Assembly: GCA_964457525.1 (NCBI GenBank)
Contig: CAYWGS010000003.1
Span: forward strand, 1 to 32,000
Source: an uncultured Erysipelotrichaceae bacterium
GTDB lineage: Bacteria; Bacillota_I; Bacilli_A; Erysipelotrichales; Erysipelotrichaceae
Length of the DNA stretch: 32,000 bases
Direction: 5' to 3'
Notes under the pieces: model-generated
Seen by the model: the letters and a program-made list of their open reading frames with translations, nothing else
The model's database searches: none
What the model was told of the DNA's origin: nothing
Made by a program: the position numbers and the translations under genes
Part shown: piece by piece, positions 12,396-21,972 of the stretch
How positions within the stretch are numbered: position 1 is the first letter of the stretch
How the letters are laid out: each line of letters starts with the position of its first letter

Positions 12396-12416
12396 AAACT
12401 ATATAGTTGGTTGAAC

Positions 12417-12564
12417 ATTCCGGGAGAGATCTAATCATAGGCACCGAAGGCGAAATGCGCATAAACGCTCAGGTAAAAGGACCGGAATAGGACAAAACTT
12501 CGTAGAGAGAGTTAATCCACCGAAGAGGCAATCGAAAGAGAATCTTTCAGGTAAAAAGACGAAG
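12417..12564 (+). promoter_or_regulatory. Tandem (two-aptamer) glycine riboswitch
   Basis: Aptamer 1 (12417-12488): P1 ATTCCGG/CCGGAAT, GGAGAG, CACCGAAGG, CTCAGGTAAAAGGAC. Aptamer 2 (12498-12564): P1 CTTCGT/ACGAAG, AGAGAG, CACCGAAGAGGCAA, TTCAGGTAAAAAGAC. It lies directly upstream of gcvT, the classic context. Confidence 0.88.
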
Positions 12565-12604: not shown

Positions 12605-13672
12605 ATGGAAAAGATAACGCCTTTGTATCATTGGCATAAGAATCATCAAGGGAATATTGTAGAGTTTGGTGGCTACCTTATGCCTCTACATTATTCGAAT
12701 GGCATCTTGCATGAACATCATACTGTTCGAACTAAAGTAGGATTATTTGATGTAAGTCATATGGGAGAATTTAGTTTTTCTGGGAAAGATGCGCTTGCGA
12801 ATCTAAACTATGTGATTAGTAATGATTTTAGTGATTTGGAAATAAATAAAACACGATATGGTATCTTAGTACGAAAAGATGGGACTGCAGTCGATGATTT
12901 ATTGGTTTATCGTATGGCTGAAGAAGAATACTTCGTTGTGGTAAATGCCGCAAATATAGACAAAGATGAAGCTTACTTTAAGGAACATTTATTTGGAGAG
13001 GTAACGTTTAAAAATCTAAGTGATTATTATGGACAAATCGCAATTCAAGGTCCACTATCTCAAGAACTTTTAAAGCGATTAACACCACACAATGATATGG
13101 CCTATTACAGTTTCACACAAAATGTGGATATTGCAGGAAAGAACGTTATTGTAAGTCGTACCGGCTATACAGGTGAAGATGGATATGAGATTTACACCAA
13201 AGCTGAAGATACTGAATTCTTATGGGATTTATTTCTAAAAACAGGTGAAGATCTTGGCGTTGAACCTTGTGGATTAGGTTGTCGCGATACACTAAGACTA
13301 GAAGCCGCAATGCCATTATTCGGACATGAACTTAATGATGAAACAACTCCACTTGAAGCTGGTTTATCGATGTTCGTGAAATTGGATAAGGAAAAATTCA
13401 TCGCAAAAGAAGCGTTAAGTGAAAAACCACTTAAACGTAAAATTGGTCTTCAACTCATTGATCGAGGTATTGCACGTGAACACTGTGATGTTTATTTCAA
13501 TGGTGAAAAAGTAGGAACTGTAACTTCAGGCACGAAGAGTCCAACCCTCAATCAATCCATCGCGATGGCATTTGTCCCTGCGGAGTTGTTTAAGGAAACT
13601 CAGTTTGAGATTGATGTTAGAGGAAAATTATTAAAGGCAGAAAAGGTAAAATTACCGTTTTATAAACGATAA
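12605..13672 (+). CDS. gcvT: Glycine cleavage system T protein (aminomethyltransferase)
   Basis: Typical GcvT sequence (..TVRTKVGLFDVSHMGEF.., SRTGYTGEDGYEI) with operon context. SD AAAGGGA. Confidence 0.95.
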   Translation: MEKITPLYHWHKNHQGNIVEFGGYLMPLHYSNGILHEHHTVRTKVGLFDVSHMGEFSFSGKDALANLNYVISNDFSDLEINKTRYGILVRKDGTAVDDLLVYRMAEEEYFVVVNAANIDKDEAYFKEHLFGEVTFKNLSDYYGQIAIQGPLSQELLKRLTPHNDMAYYSFTQNVDIAGKNVIVSRTGYTGEDGYEIYTKAEDTEFLWDLFLKTGEDLGVEPCGLGCRDTLRLEAAMPLFGHELNDETTPLEAGLSMFVKLDKEKFIAKEALSEKPLKRKIGLQLIDRGIAREHCDVYFNGEKVGTVTSGTKSPTLNQSIAMAFVPAELFKETQFEIDVRGKLLKAEKVKLPFYKR

Positions 13673-13684
13673 AAGGAGCACAAA

Positions 13685-14050
13685 ATGGAAAAATATTACG
13701 CAGAATCACATGAATGGGTTATGGCATTAGATGACAATACAGTTGTTGTTGGAATTTCTGATTACGCGCAAAGTGCACTTGGAGATATCGTCTTCTTGAG
13801 TAATGCGGAAGTGGGCGATACTGTTTCTTTTGGAGAACGTTTTGGGGATGTCGAATCCGTTAAGGCTGTATCTGAAATCTTATCTCCTGTCGATGGTAAA
13901 GTTGTGGAAGTGAACAAAGCATTAGATGATCAACCTGAGTTATTGAATGCTAAACCGTTAGAAACTTGGATTATCAAAGTTGAAGGTAAAATTGATCCAT
14001 CTAAATTAATGACAGAAGCAGAATACTTAGCCCTAGATAAAGGACATTAA
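13685..14050 (+). CDS. gcvH: Glycine cleavage system H protein (lipoyl carrier)
   Basis: Lipoyl-lysine motif GDVESVKAVSEILSP; 121 aa. Confidence 0.95.
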   Translation: MEKYYAESHEWVMALDDNTVVVGISDYAQSALGDIVFLSNAEVGDTVSFGERFGDVESVKAVSEILSPVDGKVVEVNKALDDQPELLNAKPLETWIIKVEGKIDPSKLMTEAEYLALDKGH

Positions 14051-14051
14051 T

Positions 14052-15368
14052 ATGGCAGATTACCTATCGAATACACCTAACCAACAAGCTTCAATGTTAA
14101 AGGAATTAGGGTTTAATTCTCTTGAGGATCTATATTCTAATTTACCTCATGACTTAATCCTTCAACGTCCCCTCGATCTTGAACTTGGTCAAAGTGAGTT
14201 CAAAGTACTAGATACATTAAAAGAACTTGCAGGTAAGAATAAAGTCTATAAAACCATTTTGCGTGGTGCTGGTGTCGAACATCACTATATTCCAAGTGTT
14301 GTAAAACAACTCAGTAATCGTGAAGAGTTCGTAAGTGCTTATACACCATATCAATCTGAGTTATCTCAAGGTATTTTACAATCCATCTTTGAATATCAAA
14401 GTTCTATGTGTGAAATCACAGGAATGGATGTATGTAATGCCTCTGTATATGATGGTGCGACTGCAGCTGCTGAGGCCATCCAAATGGTGATTGAAAAGAA
14501 TCGTAGAAAAATACTTGTGCCTAAGAATATGCACCCACAAGTCGTTCATGTCATGCGTACCTATACACAATGGTTAAACATTGAGATTATCGATGTTGAA
14601 TGTCATGAAGGTCTAGTTGATATGAATGATCTAAAATCAAAATGCGATGATCAATGTGCCGCATTATTCATCCAACATCCAAACTATTTTGGTTGTTTAG
14701 AAGATGTTCAAGACTTAGCACAAACCGTCCATACCTATGGTATTAAACTCGTTCAATATACCAACCCGATGACACTTGGTTACTTAAAATCTCCTCGTGC
14801 AAACGGTGTTGATATCGCGATCGGAGAAGCACAACCTCTCGGTATACCGATGTCCTATGGCGGCCCTTTCTTAGGTTTTATGTCCGCAAGTGCTGATTTA
14901 GTTCGTCGCTTGCCGGGTCGAATTGCAGGTCAAACCGTAGATGAAAATGGCAAACGCGCATTTACTTTAACTCTTCAAGCCCGTGAACAACATATTCGTC
15001 GTGAAAAAGCGAGTTCAAGTATTTGTTCCAATCAAGCATTGATGGCATTGACCGCTTCTATGTATCTTGCGTCTGTTGGACCTAGTGGATTAAAAGAAGT
15101 GGCGGAATACAGTATGCGTAAAGCACACTACTTCGCAAATGAACTAGTGAAGTTAGGATTCAAACTAAAATACAATAGTCCATTCTTCCATGAGTTTGTG
15201 ACAGTTGGACCGGTTGAAAATATAATTATTGAGCGTGCATTGGATGAAATTAATGTCTTATCTGGATTGAGTTTAAGTTCACATGAAACACTTTGGTGTT
15301 GTACAGAAACCACTTCTAAGGAAGATATTGATCGTGTCATCCATCGTTTAAAGGAGGTCGTCGCATGA
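14052..15368 (+). CDS. gcvPA: Glycine dehydrogenase (decarboxylating) subunit 1
   Basis: Typical split P-protein alpha subunit (..[16 protein letters not shown]..). ATGA overlap with gcvPB. Confidence 0.95.
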
Positions 15369-16807
15369 GTCAACTCATTTTTGAAAGAAGTGTTTCATCA
15401 AGACGTGCTGTACGCTTTGATGCGTGTGATGTGCCTGAAGTTAAACTTGATGATAAATATGTAAGACAATCCAAAGCACGTTTACCCGAAGTCAGTGAAG
15501 TTGACATTGTTCGTCACTACATGGAACTTTCAAGAAACTCCTTTGGCGTAGATAATGGTTTCTATCCTCTTGGATCTTGTACCATGAAGTACAATCCTAA
15601 ATTAAATGAATTTACAGCTAGCTTAGATGGCTTTACCTCCATCCATCCAGATCAAAGTTTAAACACTGTGTCTGGCACAGTAGAACTTATGGATAATCTT
15701 AGCCTTGTGCTTGCAGAGATTACTGGTATGGATGCTTTCACACTACAACCTGCTGCTGGAGCACATGGTGAATTTACAGGCTTACTTCTCATTCGTGCCT
15801 ATCACAATGCGCGTAATGATCATAAGCGCACAAAAGTTATCGTTCCAGATAGTTCACATGGAACAAACCCAGCAAGTGCAAGTATGGCTGGTTATACCGT
15901 AGTAAGTGTTCCATCCAATGATCAAGGTGGTGTTGATGTAGAAGCTCTAAAAGCCGTTCTCAGTGATGATATTGCGGCTCTCATGTTAACAAATCCAAAT
16001 ACCTTAGGTTTATTCGATCCTAATATCTGTGAGATTTCAAAACTCGTTCATGATATTGGTGGATTACTCTATTATGATGGGGCAAACCTCAATGCGATAA
16101 TGGGTACCGCAAGACCAGGGGATATGGGTTTTGACGTTGTACACCTTAACTTACATAAAACATTCTCTACCCCTCATGGTGGAGGTGGTCCTGGTAGTGG
16201 TCCAGTCGGTGTTAAATCGTGTTTAGTTCCATATCTTCCACAAGGCACCTTAATTAAGGAAGCCTATAGATATCGCTACATTGATGAAAGAGATACCCTC
16301 AGTATTGGACGTATGCGTTCTTATTACGGTAATTTCTTGGTCAATGTACGTGCTTATACCTATATCTTATCGCTTGGACGTGATGGACTAAAATCCGCAA
16401 GTCAGAATGCAGTTCTTAATGCGAACTATATGATGAATGCCCTCAAGGATACCTTCCCTATTGCTTACCCACAAACTTGTATGCATGAATTTGTCGTAAG
16501 CCTTGAAACTCTCAAGAAAGAAACAGGTATTAGTGCTAAGGATATCTGTAAAGCACTCTTAGACTATAAGATGCATCCACCTACCATGTACTTCCCACTC
16601 ATTGTTCACGAAGCACTCATGATTGAGCCAACTGAAACTGAAAGTAAGGAAAGTATGGATAACTTCATTCAAGTTCTAAAAGACTTGAAACAGCTCGCAT
16701 ACGATGACCCTCAAAAGATTCTCAATGCGCCATACACAACTCCAGTCAAACGTGTCGATGATGTACAAGCTGCACGTAATCCAATTCTTAAGTATCCATT
16801 TAAATAA
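15365..16807 (+). CDS. gcvPB: Glycine dehydrogenase (decarboxylating) subunit 2
   Basis: PLP-lysine region [18 protein letters not shown]. Confidence 0.95.
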
Positions 16808-16906: not shown

Positions 16907-17413
16907 ATGCTCATTTATCTATTAATGAAGATTGAACAATCCTTATGCAGAGAATATTTAAGATCCATTTCGTTTACTCAAATACTCCTCATAATCCCTA
17001 TTTATATCCTTAACCTAAACATAAGTTCTTATCTACTCTTATCCGTCTTATTTACATTAGCTTGGATGGATGATCAGCTTAAAGCTGTTAGTGATCGATT
17101 ACTAATCCTATATTTCATATCAATATTGTTTCATTACATTAATCACCCGATTCCGATTAGTGTTATTAATCTATTCATTTGTTTAGGATTACTCATCTTT
17201 TCAAAATTATCTAATGGATTGGGAATAGGAGATGTCTATATCTTTTTTGGCTTAGCATTTATCCTAACACTCCAAGACTTTATGTTTGTAATCAAGTATT
17301 CTTGTTGGTTTGGACTAATTCTAGAACTCATAAAAAAGGCAAAATCATCTTTTGCCTTTATTCCATATATTTATATAGGATTAGTCGTATTCCTTATCTT
17401 AAATCTTTATTAA
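16907..17413 (+). CDS. Polytopic membrane protein, prepilin-peptidase-like (A24 family) by motif
   Basis: 168 aa and very hydrophobic. AWMDDQLKAVSD and GLGIGDVYIFFGLAF resemble the two Asp-containing motifs of A24 peptidases (GxGDxK-like). C-terminal FAFIPYIYIG. The call is weak. Confidence 0.4.
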   Translation: MLIYLLMKIEQSLCREYLRSISFTQILLIIPIYILNLNISSYLLLSVLFTLAWMDDQLKAVSDRLLILYFISILFHYINHPIPISVINLFICLGLLIFSKLSNGLGIGDVYIFFGLAFILTLQDFMFVIKYSCWFGLILELIKKAKSSFAFIPYIYIGLVVFLILNLY

Positions 17414-18125
17414 TCTTATCGTATATTTTGGGTAAATCTGAGATAGATATAATTCCTAATGGTTTTTGATTACTCGCTCCATCTTGAGTGATAATCAAAG
17501 CATTCAAACGTTTTCCTAACGCAAGTGAACGTTCAAATTGTGATACAACAGATAGAAGTGTAGAATGCGATGGAATAAACTCTACCATACGATTCTTTTC
17601 GTCTTGTTCCAAGATTTCCTTCATTGTGATATTTGGAATTTCACCTTGTATATTTTCGATATTCTTAACTAAGTACTCATAAATAAGGTCTGTTGTAATT
17701 AAACCCTTAAAATGCATCTTATGATCGTATACTGGTAATTTAGAGTAATGTTTCGGTAATAATTTCTTTAATACAGGCTCTAATAAATCAGTATCTAAAC
17801 AATATTCTACCTTTGTAAGATAATTCGGAGAAACACGTTCAGGTTGAGTCAATAGTTCCGCTATGTGTTCTATCGATTCAACCTCTTTTAAATGAGGTTC
17901 CGCAATAACTTCACCATCAATTCGCTCATGCACAATCGCATTTCGCAAATCCCCAAACTCTTCTAGATAACGTTGAAAACGATGATAATTGCGATCCATG
18001 TTTGACATTCGACGTACGAGTTCAGAATAAGAAATGTAACGATCTGATTTAATTCTTCGGTTCATTTCTCCTTCAATCGCTGTGAATGCGATAAGGAAGC
18101 GTTCTGAATTTGGTTTATTACTCAT
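17394..18125 (-). CDS. HEPN-like (Rx4H) N-terminal domain fused to a CBS pair; function unknown
   Basis: FGDLRNAIVHE (R61-N-x3-H66; nt 17928-17945) sits in a helical ~95-aa N-terminal domain. The C-terminal half reads as two CBS repeats (..SKLPVYDHKMHFKGLITTDLIYEYL.. and ..NALIITQDGASNQKPLGIISISDLPKIY). ATGA overlap with the upstream HAD gene. Confidence 0.6.
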   Translation of the reverse strand: MSNKPNSERFLIAFTAIEGEMNRRIKSDRYISYSELVRRMSNMDRNYHRFQRYLEEFGDLRNAIVHERIDGEVIAEPHLKEVESIEHIAELLTQPERVSPNYLTKVEYCLDTDLLEPVLKKLLPKHYSKLPVYDHKMHFKGLITTDLIYEYLVKNIENIQGEIPNITMKEILEQDEKNRMVEFIPSHSTLLSVVSQFERSLALGKRLNALIITQDGASNQKPLGIISISDLPKIYDKINKDLR

Positions 18126-18943
18126 GGTTTTAATCCATCCAGTTCTTTTTGTGCTAAGAGTGATTTAAAGATTGCTTGAATAATCTTATCAACCTCTTGA
18201 CCCTTACGATAATCAGCCTCAACCACAAAATCAACACGTTTATCCTCAAATAAGGCATCACTCTCATGCGTACGTTTTTTGCCATATGGCACAACCGCTA
18301 TCGCATGTCCCCCGTTCATTTTCACAAGTTTCATACTTGGAACATCCGTAAATCCATCCCCAATATAAATCATATGACTGAACGGTATTGGCCGTTCTTC
18401 TTCTTTTTGATAACGATTTAAATCCGCATCATTGGAAATATCCAATATTCCTTTATTAATACGATATAGGAATTGTGTTTTTATCGTATAGTTAACCGAT
18501 AACTTAGGCCAAATTGCTTGTCCATTCTTATCGTATAAATACTCACATGCATAAATCTTCTTAAAATAAGATGCGATGGGCGTATTCTCAATAATCTCTT
18601 TTAAACCTGATGAAATAATATAATGCTCAAGTTCGATATTTAACAGCATCGCTACTTCATCAATGTGTTTGAACCAATCCACAACACCTGGATAGAACTC
18701 AATCTGTGAACCATACTTGCCCAACATCTCTCTACTTAGCTTAATACCACGATTCTGCGTTTGTACAATCATTTCGTGTAAGTAGGTTAGGATATGATCC
18801 ATTTCTTCTTTCTCAGCTTTTGCTTTGACATGTGACCAAAAGGATTTCGAATCTTCAATTTTGAGGTCATCGAAAAAACCATATTCTTGCATATCTTTGT
18901 AGGACAATGTTTTATCAAAATCATAGAGTATTGCGATTTTCAT
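18122..18943 (-). CDS. HAD-superfamily phosphatase (subfamily IB-like, MtnX/PSP-like cap)
   Basis: Motif I YDFDKTL, motif II ISSG, motifs III/IV K...IYIGDGFTDVP. SD AGAGG. Confidence 0.8.
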   Translation of the reverse strand: MKIAILYDFDKTLSYKDMQEYGFFDDLKIEDSKSFWSHVKAKAEKEEMDHILTYLHEMIVQTQNRGIKLSREMLGKYGSQIEFYPGVVDWFKHIDEVAMLLNIELEHYIISSGLKEIIENTPIASYFKKIYACEYLYDKNGQAIWPKLSVNYTIKTQFLYRINKGILDISNDADLNRYQKEEERPIPFSHMIYIGDGFTDVPSMKLVKMNGGHAIAVVPYGKKRTHESDALFEDKRVDFVVEADYRKGQEVDKIIQAIFKSLLAQKELDGLKP

Positions 18944-18987: not shown

Positions 18988-19371
18988 ATGAAACATGTTG
19001 TGATTGGTATTCTATACAAGAATCATCATCTTTGTGTCGCAAAACGACTTTCTGAACCCTTCAAAGGATATATTGAATGTCCTGGGGGAAAAGTTGAATT
19101 AGATGAAACACTTGAAGATGCATTAAAACGAGAATTGTTTGAAGAAATTAATCTTCAGAACTTTGAATATCAGTATTTAAGAGAAATACTTGTACTCAAT
19201 GAGCATGGTTCATTTACATTACACTTCTATAAAATAACCACCAATGAAGAATGTACACCGAAGGTTTATACTGAACTTCTATGGGTCCATAGAGATCAAA
19301 TAGAAACCTTAAACTGGATACCCCATAATCTTCCTTATATCGACTTCTTTAAACAAGTTGATCAGCTTTAA
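18988..19371 (+). CDS. Nudix hydrolase (MutT-like)
   Basis: Near-canonical Nudix box GGKVELDETLEDALKRELFEEINL (Gx5Ex7REUxEE). 127 aa. Confidence 0.85.
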   Translation: MKHVVIGILYKNHHLCVAKRLSEPFKGYIECPGGKVELDETLEDALKRELFEEINLQNFEYQYLREILVLNEHGSFTLHFYKITTNEECTPKVYTELLWVHRDQIETLNWIPHNLPYIDFFKQVDQL

Positions 19372-20332
19372 ATACAATATTTGCTTGTTTACGCGCTTGA
19401 TCTAAACAAGACATCAAAATCTCAGTATTCTTAACATGCGATTGGTAGGTTAGCCAATCGTTATTTTTTATTATCTGCGCAAATGCTTTGATTTCTTCAA
19501 CCATCGCATTTTGAGCTTGTTCAACCCCTAATTCACGTGTTTCCTTTGGTGTTATGAGTTGAACAGATACTAATCTTGAAGGTTGTTCAGGAATGACAAT
19601 TGCACCCCTTTCACCACTAATATAACTAAAGTTCATACCACGACTATCTTTACCAATCACACAAACACACACTTTATCAGGATACTTCAATGTGAGTACA
19701 CCCGATAAATCAATCCCATTTACATACTTATTGCACTCATAATGAAGTGATTCAGGCTTACCAAATAACGCAATACATAATCCCATTGGATAGACACCTA
19801 AATCCATAAGTGCTCCACCGGAATGATTTAAATCAAAGATATTAGGAATCGTACCTTGAGCTAATAAGTCATAACGACTCGAATACTGAACCATTGAACT
19901 GTTCATAAGTTTGATTGGTTCAATTTCATGTAGGTGTTCTTTTATCACCTTCAGATTTGGAAGATGCATCAAAGTCATCGCATCGAAACAATAGTGCTTT
20001 GTTTCATTAGACACTCTCATCAATTCATTAAACTCAGTCAGATTACTAACAAATGGTTTTTCACAAATAACATGTTTATGTGCTTTAAGCGCATCTAAAC
20101 ATTGCGAGAAATGCACATCATTCGGACTTGCGACATAAAGAACATCCACATCCATTTGACTCAATAATGTATTCCAATCACTAATAACTGGTACTTCATA
20201 TTGTTTCGCAAAATCTAAACCCTTTTCTTCACTTCTTGAATATACGTAAGCTAATTCAAAATAAGGTTCATGTTTTAATGCATCTAGAAAATGATGTGTA
20301 ATAACAGATGTACCTACTGTTGCGAGTCTCAT
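19349..20332 (-). CDS. Gfo/Idh/MocA-family NAD(P)-dependent oxidoreductase
   Basis: N-terminal Rossmann fold, the EKP motif (VICEKPFV) and family-typical length. ATGA overlap with the upstream pyrophosphatase gene. Confidence 0.85.
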   Translation of the reverse strand: MRLATVGTSVITHHFLDALKHEPYFELAYVYSRSEEKGLDFAKQYEVPVISDWNTLLSQMDVDVLYVASPNDVHFSQCLDALKAHKHVICEKPFVSNLTEFNELMRVSNETKHYCFDAMTLMHLPNLKVIKEHLHEIEPIKLMNSSMVQYSSRYDLLAQGTIPNIFDLNHSGGALMDLGVYPMGLCIALFGKPESLHYECNKYVNGIDLSGVLTLKYPDKVCVCVIGKDSRGMNFSYISGERGAIVIPEQPSRLVSVQLITPKETRELGVEQAQNAMVEEIKAFAQIIKNNDWLTYQSHVKNTEILMSCLDQARKQANIVFKADQLV

Positions 20333-21972
20333 AATCCACCTCTTCCTTCTACCACACTGGATAGTTTTGGCATAACTTGTTTCTTTCTGGATAATAAATC
20401 AGGGAATAAACTGAGCTTATGATTGTCAATACCTGGGAATGCTTCTTCCGCAATCCACTTTTCCTTACCCATATAGAGTAAAGCAGACCCATGATGCTCA
20501 AGACTTGTAAACAATAACAGTACTAAATCTATTCGTTTCTCTTCGACATAAGTGCTCATTGCCTTAAGAATATCTTCTCGAACTGTTTCGATTTGGTTAA
20601 TATCAAATAAGCTCATTTGACCAACTCTTACACGATAATTACCTACCGTAAATTCTTTAATGTCATTTTCGATAATATCCAATGCGGATTTCTCATGAAG
20701 ACCTGCTCCTTCAGTAAAGATATCCTTCGCCAATGCGTCTGTATTTAACTCCGCAATACGTGCACATCGTTGCGCTGTATGAATATCTGTGAGTGTAGTT
20801 GTAGGTGATTTAAAGTTAAGTGTATCCGACAAGATTGCGGCACAGAGTAATCCAGCCATATTTTTCTCAAGTGGTACGCGATTCTCATCGTAAAGATTCG
20901 CAATAATCGTACAAGTACTTCCCACTAATTGATTTCTAAAATTAATTGGTTTGCTCGTTTGAATATCCCCGATACGATGATGATCCACAACCTCGATTAA
21001 ATCCGCTTCAGCTAATCCATCCACACTTTGTGCTGTTTCATTATGGTCCACTAGAATGATTTGTTTACGGCGCGCATTCAACAAGTGATAACGAGAAATT
21101 AAACCAAATATCTTACCCTTATCATCCACAACTGGATAACTACGATAACGTGACTTAACTACTTTATTTAATACATCATCCACAAACTCTGACTTATCAA
21201 ATGTAACAAGATTTGTAGACATAATAAATTTTATTGGTGAGGAATAGAAAATATAACGAGAGGTATTTAATGTCCCATGACCAGAAAGAATAATCGCACA
21301 TCCCTTTTCTTTCGCATACTTAATTACTTCGTCTTTTACATAATCTGCCCATACGATAACTAAACAAGCCGCATCCTTTTCAATTGCTTGTAGTTGCGCT
21401 TCTGTATCATTCCCTACAATTACAGTACGATCTTTCAATTCATAATTATCAAGTTTATGTTCCGCAACCGCAACAATCGAAACCTTACCATTTAAACGTG
21501 TTACTTTTGGTGCATAAATTAAGGCACCACTAATGGTTTTTACAATGTACTCAATCGGTGTTTTACTCAAGAGCTCAATACTCTTTGCCGTATCTCCCAT
21601 CGCTACCGTTGATATGTTGGAATTGGTTAATACCCCAAGTAGAACATTATTATCATCCACAACACATAAGACCTTCTTTTCAGTACTCATGAGTTGCCAA
21701 GCTTCAAAGATCGTTGTTTCTTCTTTGATGGTAACTGCTCTATCGATGTCAATCTCATTCAAACGCATTCTTGCATCATCGAGAATCATTGGTTCATTAA
21801 AACCAAAACGTTTTAAAATGTAGTCTGTTTCATGATTAATTGCACCCAAACGACATGCTATAGCTTCATAACCAAGCTTTTGTTTTAGGTTTGCATATCC
21901 GATTGCGGAACAGATTGAATCCGTGTCTGGATGCTTATGTCCCGTAATATGGATTGGAAAATTAGTAGGCAT
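20329..21972 (-). CDS. Family II (DHH) inorganic pyrophosphatase with inserted CBS pair + DRTGG domain (CBS-PPase)
   Basis: HKHPDTDSICSA (DHH motif I), VVDHHRIG (DHH), DHHA2-like C-terminus, and a ~250-aa CBS/DRTGG insertion. 547 aa. Confidence 0.88.
   Translation of the reverse strand: MPTNFPIHITGHKHPDTDSICSAIGYANLKQKLGYEAIACRLGAINHETDYILKRFGFNEPMILDDARMRLNEIDIDRAVTIKEETTIFEAWQLMSTEKKVLCVVDDNNVLLGVLTNSNISTVAMGDTAKSIELLSKTPIEYIVKTISGALIYAPKVTRLNGKVSIVAVAEHKLDNYELKDRTVIVGNDTEAQLQAIEKDAACLVIVWADYVKDEVIKYAKEKGCAIILSGHGTLNTSRYIFYSSPIKFIMSTNLVTFDKSEFVDDVLNKVVKSRYRSYPVVDDKGKIFGLISRYHLLNARRKQIILVDHNETAQSVDGLAEADLIEVVDHHRIGDIQTSKPINFRNQLVGSTCTIIANLYDENRVPLEKNMAGLLCAAILSDTLNFKSPTTTLTDIHTAQRCARIAELNTDALAKDIFTEGAGLHEKSALDIIENDIKEFTVGNYRVRVGQMSLFDINQIETVREDILKAMSTYVEEKRIDLVLLLFTSLEHHGSALLYMGKEKWIAEEAFPGIDNHKLSLFPDLLSRKKQVMPKLSSVVEGRGGL

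Follow-up and report, generated by a model that had tools for sequence, protein, structure and literature searches.

A translationally coupled HAD phosphatase and HEPN-like/CBS protein in an uncultured Erysipelotrichaceae bacterium: a candidate nucleotide-gated RNase with a phosphatase partner

Introduction

HEPN domains fused to CBS domains, with or without HD, were noted computationally by Anantharaman et al. 2013 (e.g., alr3009 and the Pelobacter protein gi 118580987; PMC3710099), and the E. coli protein DS-11 (WP_000257686.1; DefensePredictor, Science 2026) is a validated anti-phage CBS+HEPN protein (PMC13092281). Here, we analyse a gene pair that joins such an architecture to a phosphatase. 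It is found in a stretch of 32,000 nucleotides (nt) of contig CAYWGS010000003.1 (assembly GCA_964457525.1) from an uncultured Erysipelotrichaceae bacterium, in the following called the window. The first of its two minus-strand genes encodes a HAD phosphatase (referred to as HAD), the second a protein of 243 amino acids (aa), labelled HC, with an HEPN-like N-terminal domain and a CBS pair; all coordinates are collected in Table 1. Judged from their overlapping stop and start codons, both genes are coupled in translation, and this coupling is conserved within a single clade.

DS-11 resembles HC in that one protein holds both a CBS module and an Rx4H HEPN domain. Mutating its CBS residue Tyr157 or its HEPN residues R330/H335 abolishes phage defence, and its authors propose that the RNase is gated by a CBS-bound adenine derivative still to be found (PMC13092281). 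In contrast to HC, where the HEPN-like domain comes first, DS-11 is a protein of 365 aa with the CBS module followed by a C-terminal HEPN domain, and it has no phosphatase partner. HC scores 14.3 bits against the respective NCBIfam model DS11_antiphage (NF053863, cut-off 260), with a match to the CBS stretch only, i.e., the two proteins are not homologous at the family level. The fusions from 2013 share with HC the same domains as well as the logic of a nucleotide-sensing CBS part that regulates RNA cleavage (PMC3710099), while no HAD partner is described for them; this comparison with HC is one by description only. A preliminary description of the locus, made from its sequence, had put forward a ligand-gated RNase, an idea that agrees by analogy with both the 2013 proposal (PMC3710099) and the DS-11 mutagenesis (PMC13092281).

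HAD phosphatases are part of validated defence systems, too, namely of Chp (CARF-HAD, PMC12715507) and of PUA-Cal-HAD / DS-9 (PMC12871103, PMC13092281). Such defence HADs act on ATP, dATP, IMP or dNTPs in an abortive-infection response (PMC12715507, PMC12871103, PMC13092281), with ATP, dATP and IMP as substrates of Chp (PMC12715507) and dATP as that of PUA-Cal-HAD (PMC12871103). Their partners are CARF plus transmembrane helices, or PUA-calcineurin, and in neither case a CBS or HEPN domain. Furthermore, DS-9 is annotated as HAD-IA, whereas the window HAD matches HAD-IB-type models only and has no DS-9 among its NCBIfam matches. It does show a full-length match to the PADLOC model PDLC05002 of PDC-S34. 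PDC models describe candidates, i.e., genes that are nested in BREX, in DISARM or in a restriction-modification (RM) system of type I (Payne et al., preprint 10.1101/2024.01.29.577857). Unlike the RM-embedded PDC-S34 genes, the window HAD is coupled to HC amid housekeeping genes. In the literature searched, PDC-S34 is neither discussed by name nor experimentally tested.

With regard to operon structure, MntA-HepT is similar in combining an Rx4H HEPN RNase with an enzymatic partner in a two-gene operon, and HepT is the best-geometry neighbour of the modelled N-terminal domain of HC (see below). It differs in that the partner is a nucleotidyltransferase antitoxin instead of a phosphatase, HAD is absent from most of the HC family, and the profile comparison with HepT is not significant.

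Public sources name HAD and HC only generically, and no operon of a HAD gene with an HEPN-like/CBS gene is described in the literature searched. The preliminary description went further and saw no named counterpart for the module. This stands for the pairing but not for its parts: HAD belongs to PDC-S34, HEPN+CBS proteins are known, and one of them, the non-homologous DS-11, is validated. That is, the pairing is undescribed while its separate parts are already known from phage-defence candidates.

Results

Conservation and origin of the gene pair

HC relatives are rare and patchily distributed. One search provided 189 homologues. With one genome scanned for each of 185,579 species, 217 relatives were obtained, for which 80 loci were fetched. 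We observe a HAD gene immediately upstream in all loci of 42-90% HC identity that have upstream sequence, and all of these paired loci stem from uncultured metagenome-assembled genomes of Erysipelotrichaceae type. Among the loci with 31-38% HC identity, none (0/46) has an adjacent HAD gene; these come from Planococcaceae, Trueperaceae, Nitrospirae, Chloroflexota, Proteobacteria, Cyanobacteria and others, and the unpaired homologues of the sampled loci share no common neighbour of any kind. Synteny of the two genes, which the preliminary description suggested to survey across Bacillota, holds for every locus of the clade with upstream sequence but is confined to this one Erysipelotrichaceae clade.

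Within the clade, the coupling is tight. The two open reading frames (ORFs) and the ATGA overlap, from which a single translational unit had been proposed, are present in the window. Of 29 paired loci, nearly all retain such an overlap, with a length of 4 or 8 nt, and they do so down to a protein identity of 42%. The genes on both sides of the pair are rearranged between subclades. Since the overlap is kept despite this rearrangement of the flanks, we consider it an argument for selection on co-expression.

The paired HADs are monophyletic and sister to a group of RM-embedded and solo HADs. Furthermore, HAD and HC co-diverge (r = 0.95). Because the paired HADs form one clade and co-diverge with HC, their phylogeny indicates that the pair arose once and was vertically inherited thereafter. 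Outside the Erysipelotrichaceae clade, each of the two proteins occurs alone, which argues that HAD is not an obligate antitoxin and that HC is self-sufficient. One Erysipelotrichaceae genome (L070) carries both families 4.4 kb apart; it was discarded as a further instance of the pair, given that the genes do not form an operon and that its HAD does not group with the paired ones.

The unpaired HC homologue of Planococcus, Planomicrobium and Psychrobacillus is directly followed downstream by a gene for a calcineurin-like metallophosphatase, i.e., a second phosphoesterase unrelated to HAD (L058 6715-7542, L076 6941-7750, and likewise L066, L069, L071 and L080). A general pairing of HC with phosphoesterases was considered and rejected, since the metallophosphatase is lineage-restricted and found in an ABC-transporter/glyoxalase context. 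The HC homologues of Bhargavaea and Sporosarcina have a different neighbour.

The N-terminal domain of HC

HC carries the string FGDLRNAIVHE, in which nt 17943-17945 encode R61 and nt 17928-17930 encode H66, i.e., the Rx4H motif that had been taken as the sign of an HEPN active site. Its conservation was assessed in several sets of homologues. Among 31 homologues of 37-88% identity, R61, N62 and H66 are invariant together with the flanking LxE[FY][GA]DLRNAI[VI]HERIDGxxIAEPH. At a mean identity of about 31%, L60, R61, N62, H66, A75 and P77 are found in 103/103 aligned homologues, such that the conservation of R61 and H66 called for by the preliminary description is without exception. A profile of HC residues 1-97 retrieves 1,327 representative clusters (clusters at 50% identity; 663 of them at E <= 1e-10), nearly all with proteins of 230-250 aa, and RNx3H is present in 146/147 cluster representatives. 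A lone Rx4H string could be due to chance; its conservation across these alignments goes beyond that. On the other hand, H78 is variable among the 103 homologues and thus unlikely to be essential.

HEPN domains are described by an Rx4-6H motif whose arginine is directly followed by a polar residue (N/D/H), by an insert between helices 2 and 3, and often by a second acidic residue within Ex3[KR] (PMC3710099). With regard to the latter motif, position 18 of HC is E/D in 100/103 homologues and position 22 is K/R in 78/103; HC of the window reads E18...N22-R23. The AlphaFold model of full-length HC (31 homologues; mean predicted local distance difference test score, pLDDT, of 90.2; predicted template modelling score of 0.80) comprises five helices and, C-terminal to them, a Bateman fold; that of the N-terminal domain reaches a pLDDT of 90.1. 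The predicted helices are H1 (6-25), H2 (33-43), an insert helix (45-49), H3 (51-66/69) and, after a loop, H4 (79-93). R61..H66 is located at the end of predicted H3 before the loop to H4, a layout that agrees with the HEPN description (PMC3710099).

Weak Pfam matches of 17 family members are to RiboL-PSP-HEPN (12/17, best E 5.1e-5), DUF3644 (7/17), HepT-like (4/17) and Apea (1/17). DUF3644 is an HEPN domain according to the literature consulted, i.e., the recurring weak matches are almost all to HEPN families. Foldseek comparison of the N-terminal model with PDB yields HepT/HEPN structures as the best geometry, all at E > 1: 5yep_C with a template modelling (TM) score of 0.53 (4.0 A), 6m6u_H with 0.50 (4.6 A), 7bxo_F with 0.46 and 1wwp_A with 0.42. 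Overall, the HepT neighbours show TM scores of 0.46-0.53 at a root-mean-square deviation of 4-5.6 A. Whole HC against PDB returned CBS pairs only, which is uninformative on the N-terminal domain. A profile search of that domain against PDB sequences gave nothing under E = 1, and Foldseek of its model against the viral structures of BFVD gave no meaningful match.

A specific kinship with HepT finds no support: against a HepT alignment of 118 sequences, hhalign places the motifs in register, but at P = 0.1. This control alignment was seeded from the HepT gene of a Trueperaceae locus (L063 8555-8917, minus strand), where a classic HepT/DUF86 HEPN toxin gene (FRNRLIHAY) and the HC homologue are about 1.8 kb apart.

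The preliminary description had read the domain as HEPN-like from its motif. The conserved Rx4H motif and the predicted four-helix layout speak for an HEPN assignment, but no match to an HEPN family or fold reaches significance. As judged from alignments and models, the N-terminal domain is probably a divergent, uncatalogued HEPN domain.

The CBS pair of HC

The two CBS-like repeats that had been read from the sequence hold up in both profile and structure searches. HC scores 26.3 bits against Pfam CBS (cut-off 24), a domain found in 103/103 homologues, and its model matches the solved CBS pairs of AMPK-gamma, CorC, MJ0922 and AcuB at a Foldseek E of about 1e-6. In CBS2, G224-I-I-S227-x-x-D230 corresponds to the canonical ribose-binding motif G-h-h-[ST]-x-x-[DN], with G224 conserved in 92, [ST]227 in 101 and D230 in 99 of the 103 sequences. 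The motif is less regular in CBS1. NCBIfam adds a weak match to CbpB. Given the profile score and the modelled fold, HC bears a true CBS (Bateman) pair.

The HAD phosphatase and its relatives

All HAD motifs noted in the preliminary description are present, i.e., DFDKT (residues 8-12), SSG (111-113) and GDGFTD (195-200), and they are invariant in 46 homologues. Near-invariant residues among these 46 sequences are D8, D10, T12, S111-S112-G113, K155/K164 and D196-G-x-T199-D200; the alignment has 47 near-invariant positions, all catalytic residues among them. HAD scores 31.4 bits against Pfam PF06888 (cut-off 27) and 29.9 bits against the HAD-IB model TIGR01488, which is under the cut-off of 45. 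The match to PDLC05002 has an E of 6.6e-111 and aligns residues 2-269 with model positions 6-273 of 284. By its motifs, HAD is an active-looking HAD-IB phosphatase with an intact catalytic site, for which a nucleotide or another small phosphoester is the probable substrate. A relative of solved structure is not detectable by sequence.

The HAD family is very large (>7,800 matches), and most of its members have no CBS partner. Homologues of 39% identity on Methylocystis and Rhodobacter plasmids are positioned between hsdS and hsdR, as are homologues of 53% identity on metagenomic contigs. Their companions are RhuM or Bro-N genes, in one case Shedu, and a downstream SprT/YgjP protease gene. A Synergistes homologue follows a RhuM gene, and other homologues are solitary amid metabolic genes. 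Within the RM-embedded loci (L083 1207-11759, L084 3239-11759 and L088 2172-10681), passenger genes recur, sometimes with Shedu or DUF6680, and the gene for the SprT/YgjP-like metalloprotease is placed after hsdR. The further PDC-S34 models PDLC05000 (416 positions) and PDLC05001 (384) have a C-terminus that is 100-155 positions longer than that of the window HAD, which implies that some PDC-S34 members bear an extra C-terminal domain.

Discussion

Proposed mechanism and alternatives

The best reading of the pair, to which we assign a rough probability of 40%, is that of an RNase under nucleotide control whose gene is expressed together with that of a nucleotide phosphatase. HC would be a dimeric, self-contained sensor-effector, i.e., a metal-independent endoribonuclease of HEPN type with R61, N62 and H66 as its active site. 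An adenosine-type ligand bound by the CBS pair would change the dimer geometry and thereby switch the RNase on or off. The co-translated HAD would act on a nucleotide phosphoester and either shift the nucleotide pool that is read by the CBS pair or deplete nucleotides in parallel, as Chp and PUA-Cal-HAD do. Since each protein occurs alone elsewhere, HAD is more likely a modulator or parallel effector than an antitoxin. The pair might then be a stress- or infection-triggered growth brake that has become part of normal physiology in the Erysipelotrichaceae clade. The gene structure, the invariant motifs, the CBS fold, the single origin of the pair, its conserved coupling and the genomic contexts are observed here, while from motifs, models and analogy we infer the RNase activity, the ligand, the HAD substrate, the functional link between the two proteins and their biological role.

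A number of observations weigh against this reading. With regard to HC, no HEPN family is matched above its curated threshold (RiboL-PSP always stays under its cut-off of 28.4 bits), every Foldseek match of the N-terminal domain has an E above 1, and the HepT profile comparison gives the value reported above. With regard to the link between the proteins, an interaction of HAD and HC or a metabolite shared by them is hypothetical, the comparison of 46 HAD sequences reveals no residues specific to the paired clade, and a co-divergence of r = 0.95 is what vertical inheritance side by side would produce for any two genes. Finally, the surroundings of the paired clade are those of housekeeping genes (gcv, G6PD, 6-phosphogluconolactonase, ferredoxin, GlpP, MFS, Nudix, GFO and CBS-pyrophosphatase genes), most unpaired HC homologues have ordinary neighbours as well, and slow evolution within a housekeeping setting is atypical for defence systems.

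In an alternative reading, HC is no RNase at all but a non-catalytic regulatory subunit, modelled on CBS proteins of the AMPK-gamma, CbpB or AcuB type. Its CBS pair would sense adenine nucleotides and its helical N-terminal domain would bind and regulate HAD or another enzyme, which would make the pair a metabolic phosphatase under nucleotide control. The lack of a significant HEPN match in sequence or fold fits this picture, as do the conserved translational coupling, the slow evolution in a housekeeping setting and the fact that the closest solved CBS relatives are regulatory, with CbpB as the weak NCBIfam match. Nevertheless, HC is found without HAD in every sampled locus outside the one clade, so the N-terminal domain cannot be a dedicated HAD-binding module. 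Furthermore, that R61, N62 and H66 do not vary among about 1,300 clusters, and this where HEPN active sites are located, is more typical of catalysis. We thus consider a purely regulatory HC unlikely.

We are equally doubtful of two independent proteins that are merely co-transcribed, i.e., a small-molecule phosphatase next to an RNase or regulator that is nucleotide-gated and works on its own. In favour of this, either family occurs mostly without the other, HAD has no pair-specific residues, and the pairing has a single origin followed by vertical inheritance. It is the retention of the 4- or 8-nt overlap in about 29 loci down to 42% identity, while the flanking genes were rearranged, that argues against independence. 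If HAD and HC were independent after all, the finding would reduce to two generic annotations.

A more specific version of the gated RNase, in which the pair is a two-component abortive-infection or stress system, i.e., a PDC-S34-type HAD makes or clears an adenine signal that is read by the CBS pair and fires a new HEPN clade, domesticated in one lineage, appears rather improbable to us. A toxin-antitoxin module, with HC as HEPN toxin and HAD as the antitoxin-like partner of the preliminary description that keeps HC or its activating ligand inactive, would find its model in MntA neutralising HepT (entries 6m6u/7bxo), as HEPN toxins with enzymatic antitoxins do exist and the putative antitoxin gene comes first with an overlapping stop/start as in such operons, but it is very unlikely given that HAD is adjacent in 0/46 HC loci outside the clade (which show no conserved neighbour whatsoever), that the HAD family is >40 times the size of the HC family and mostly without HC, and that slow evolution at a fixed core-genome position is unlike toxin-antitoxin loci.

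Returning to the nucleotide-gated RNase with its phosphatase: if the coupling is functional, the operon would be a natural experiment that joins two poorly understood families, i.e., the large HAD family that is repeatedly embedded in type I RM operons and the widespread HC family (about 1,300 clusters at 50% identity). Knowing the substrate of HAD could give a lead to the ligand of the CBS pair and vice versa, which would complement the DS-11 result. If even the two-component version were true, it would provide a function for the RM-embedded HADs and a ligand logic for >1,300 HEPN-like/CBS clusters.

Defence or physiology

With regard to the role of the pair in defence or physiology, there is evidence on both sides. 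On the side of physiology, HAD and HC evolve as slowly as GcvPA and slower than the Nudix, GFO and GNAT genes next to them, and the paired block is syntenic to about 55% identity. There are no hsd genes in the window or in the flanks of the paired loci, i.e., the RM embedding that characterises PDC-S34 is absent here. The preliminary description had reported housekeeping flanks, which we confirm, and neither mobile-element nor defence neighbours. As to the latter, the remainder of the window yielded no defence system, except for one match to the PADLOC candidate PDC-S07 (E 9.8e-23) by one of the 32 other window ORFs of at least 100 aa. Two window proteins also match mad2, which are probably generic methyltransferase matches.

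On the side of defence, members of the HAD family are embedded in RM operons, HC relatives show a rare and patchy distribution (217 in 185,579 species), and with DS-11 a CBS+HEPN protein is a validated defence. Motif-bearing HC homologues are found on plasmids beside genes for an RM methylase, HNH, SprT, Uma2 and helicase proteins, and a few unpaired HC loci adjoin Gabija, Septu, HEC-05 or restriction endonuclease genes. Such defence-type neighbours of HC (RM, HNH, Gabija, Septu) are present in a minority of loci. On a Chlorohelix plasmid (L086 5943-7681), an HC homologue with the motif KLRNSLVH has a 4-nt overlap with the upstream gene of a 344-aa protein with an Eco57I-type methylase domain, which in turn lies downstream of a gene for a DNA methyltransferase of 945 aa. 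Here, the sensor-effector protein may be coupled in another way, namely to an RM-like system. A SprT gene is also found near this homologue (L086 8731-9459).

Overall, the contexts of both families suggest a HAD-HC module of defence-type ancestry that has been kept as a core function. Its fixation in the core genome and its slow evolution raise the question whether modules that are usually filed under phage defence may sometimes be kept for ordinary physiology.

Gene layout and surroundings of the locus

Table 1. Features of the HAD-HC locus with their positions in the window.
Feature	Position	Strand	Basis or remark
HAD gene	18122..18943	-	273 aa; ORF and motifs read from the sequence
HC gene (HEPN-like domain and CBS pair, 243 aa)	17394..18125	-	
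N-terminal helical domain of HC, residues 1-95	17841..18125	-	AlphaFold, motif, weak HEPN-clan matches
R61-N62-A-I-V-H66, candidate HEPN Rx4H catalytic motif	17928..17945	-	sequence, homologue alignments
CBS (Bateman) pair, HC residues about 106-243	17397..17810	-	Pfam, Foldseek
ATGA stop/start overlap from HAD gene to HC gene	18122..18125	-	sequence
Terminator-like hairpin GGCAAAA-GAUGA-UUUUGCC, then U run	17332..17359	-	by eye and folding energy
AAGAGG Shine-Dalgarno-like sequence 5' of the HAD start codon	18949..18954	-	direct reading

The terminator-like hairpin listed in Table 1 lies 35 nt past the HC stop codon and has a folding energy of -11.2 kcal/mol (z -3.2 versus shuffles). A consensus scan for promoters and terminators, in which sites are no commoner than chance, does not list it. 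The hairpin falls within the last 80 nt of the convergent plus-strand ORF 16907-17413, which encodes a prepilin-peptidase-like membrane protein (Peptidase_A24, 28.4 bits) and overlaps the 3' end of HC by 20 nt. At the HAD-HC locus itself, neither an Rfam nor a tRNA scan gave an RNA element, and base composition is uniform across the window.

The flanks of the pair in the window consist of the gcv operon, the prepilin-peptidase-like gene and genes for a Nudix hydrolase, a GFO oxidoreductase and a CBS-pyrophosphatase. On the left side, a glycine riboswitch aptamer (12411-12494, plus strand; Rfam RF00504, 66.8 bits) is located upstream of the gcvT-gcvH-gcvPA-gcvPB operon (12605-16807), and riboswitch and operon together confirm the housekeeping nature of this flank. 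On the right side, the start of HAD and that of the divergent Nudix gene (18988) are only 44 nt apart. This gene opens a block (18988-21972) that comprises the Nudix hydrolase, a GFO/IDH/MocA oxidoreductase and a CBS-DHH family II pyrophosphatase and that is syntenic with the HAD-HC pair down to about 55% identity. A region of 4.5 kb thus encodes two proteins with CBS regulation together with two hydrolases of nucleotides or phosphoesters.

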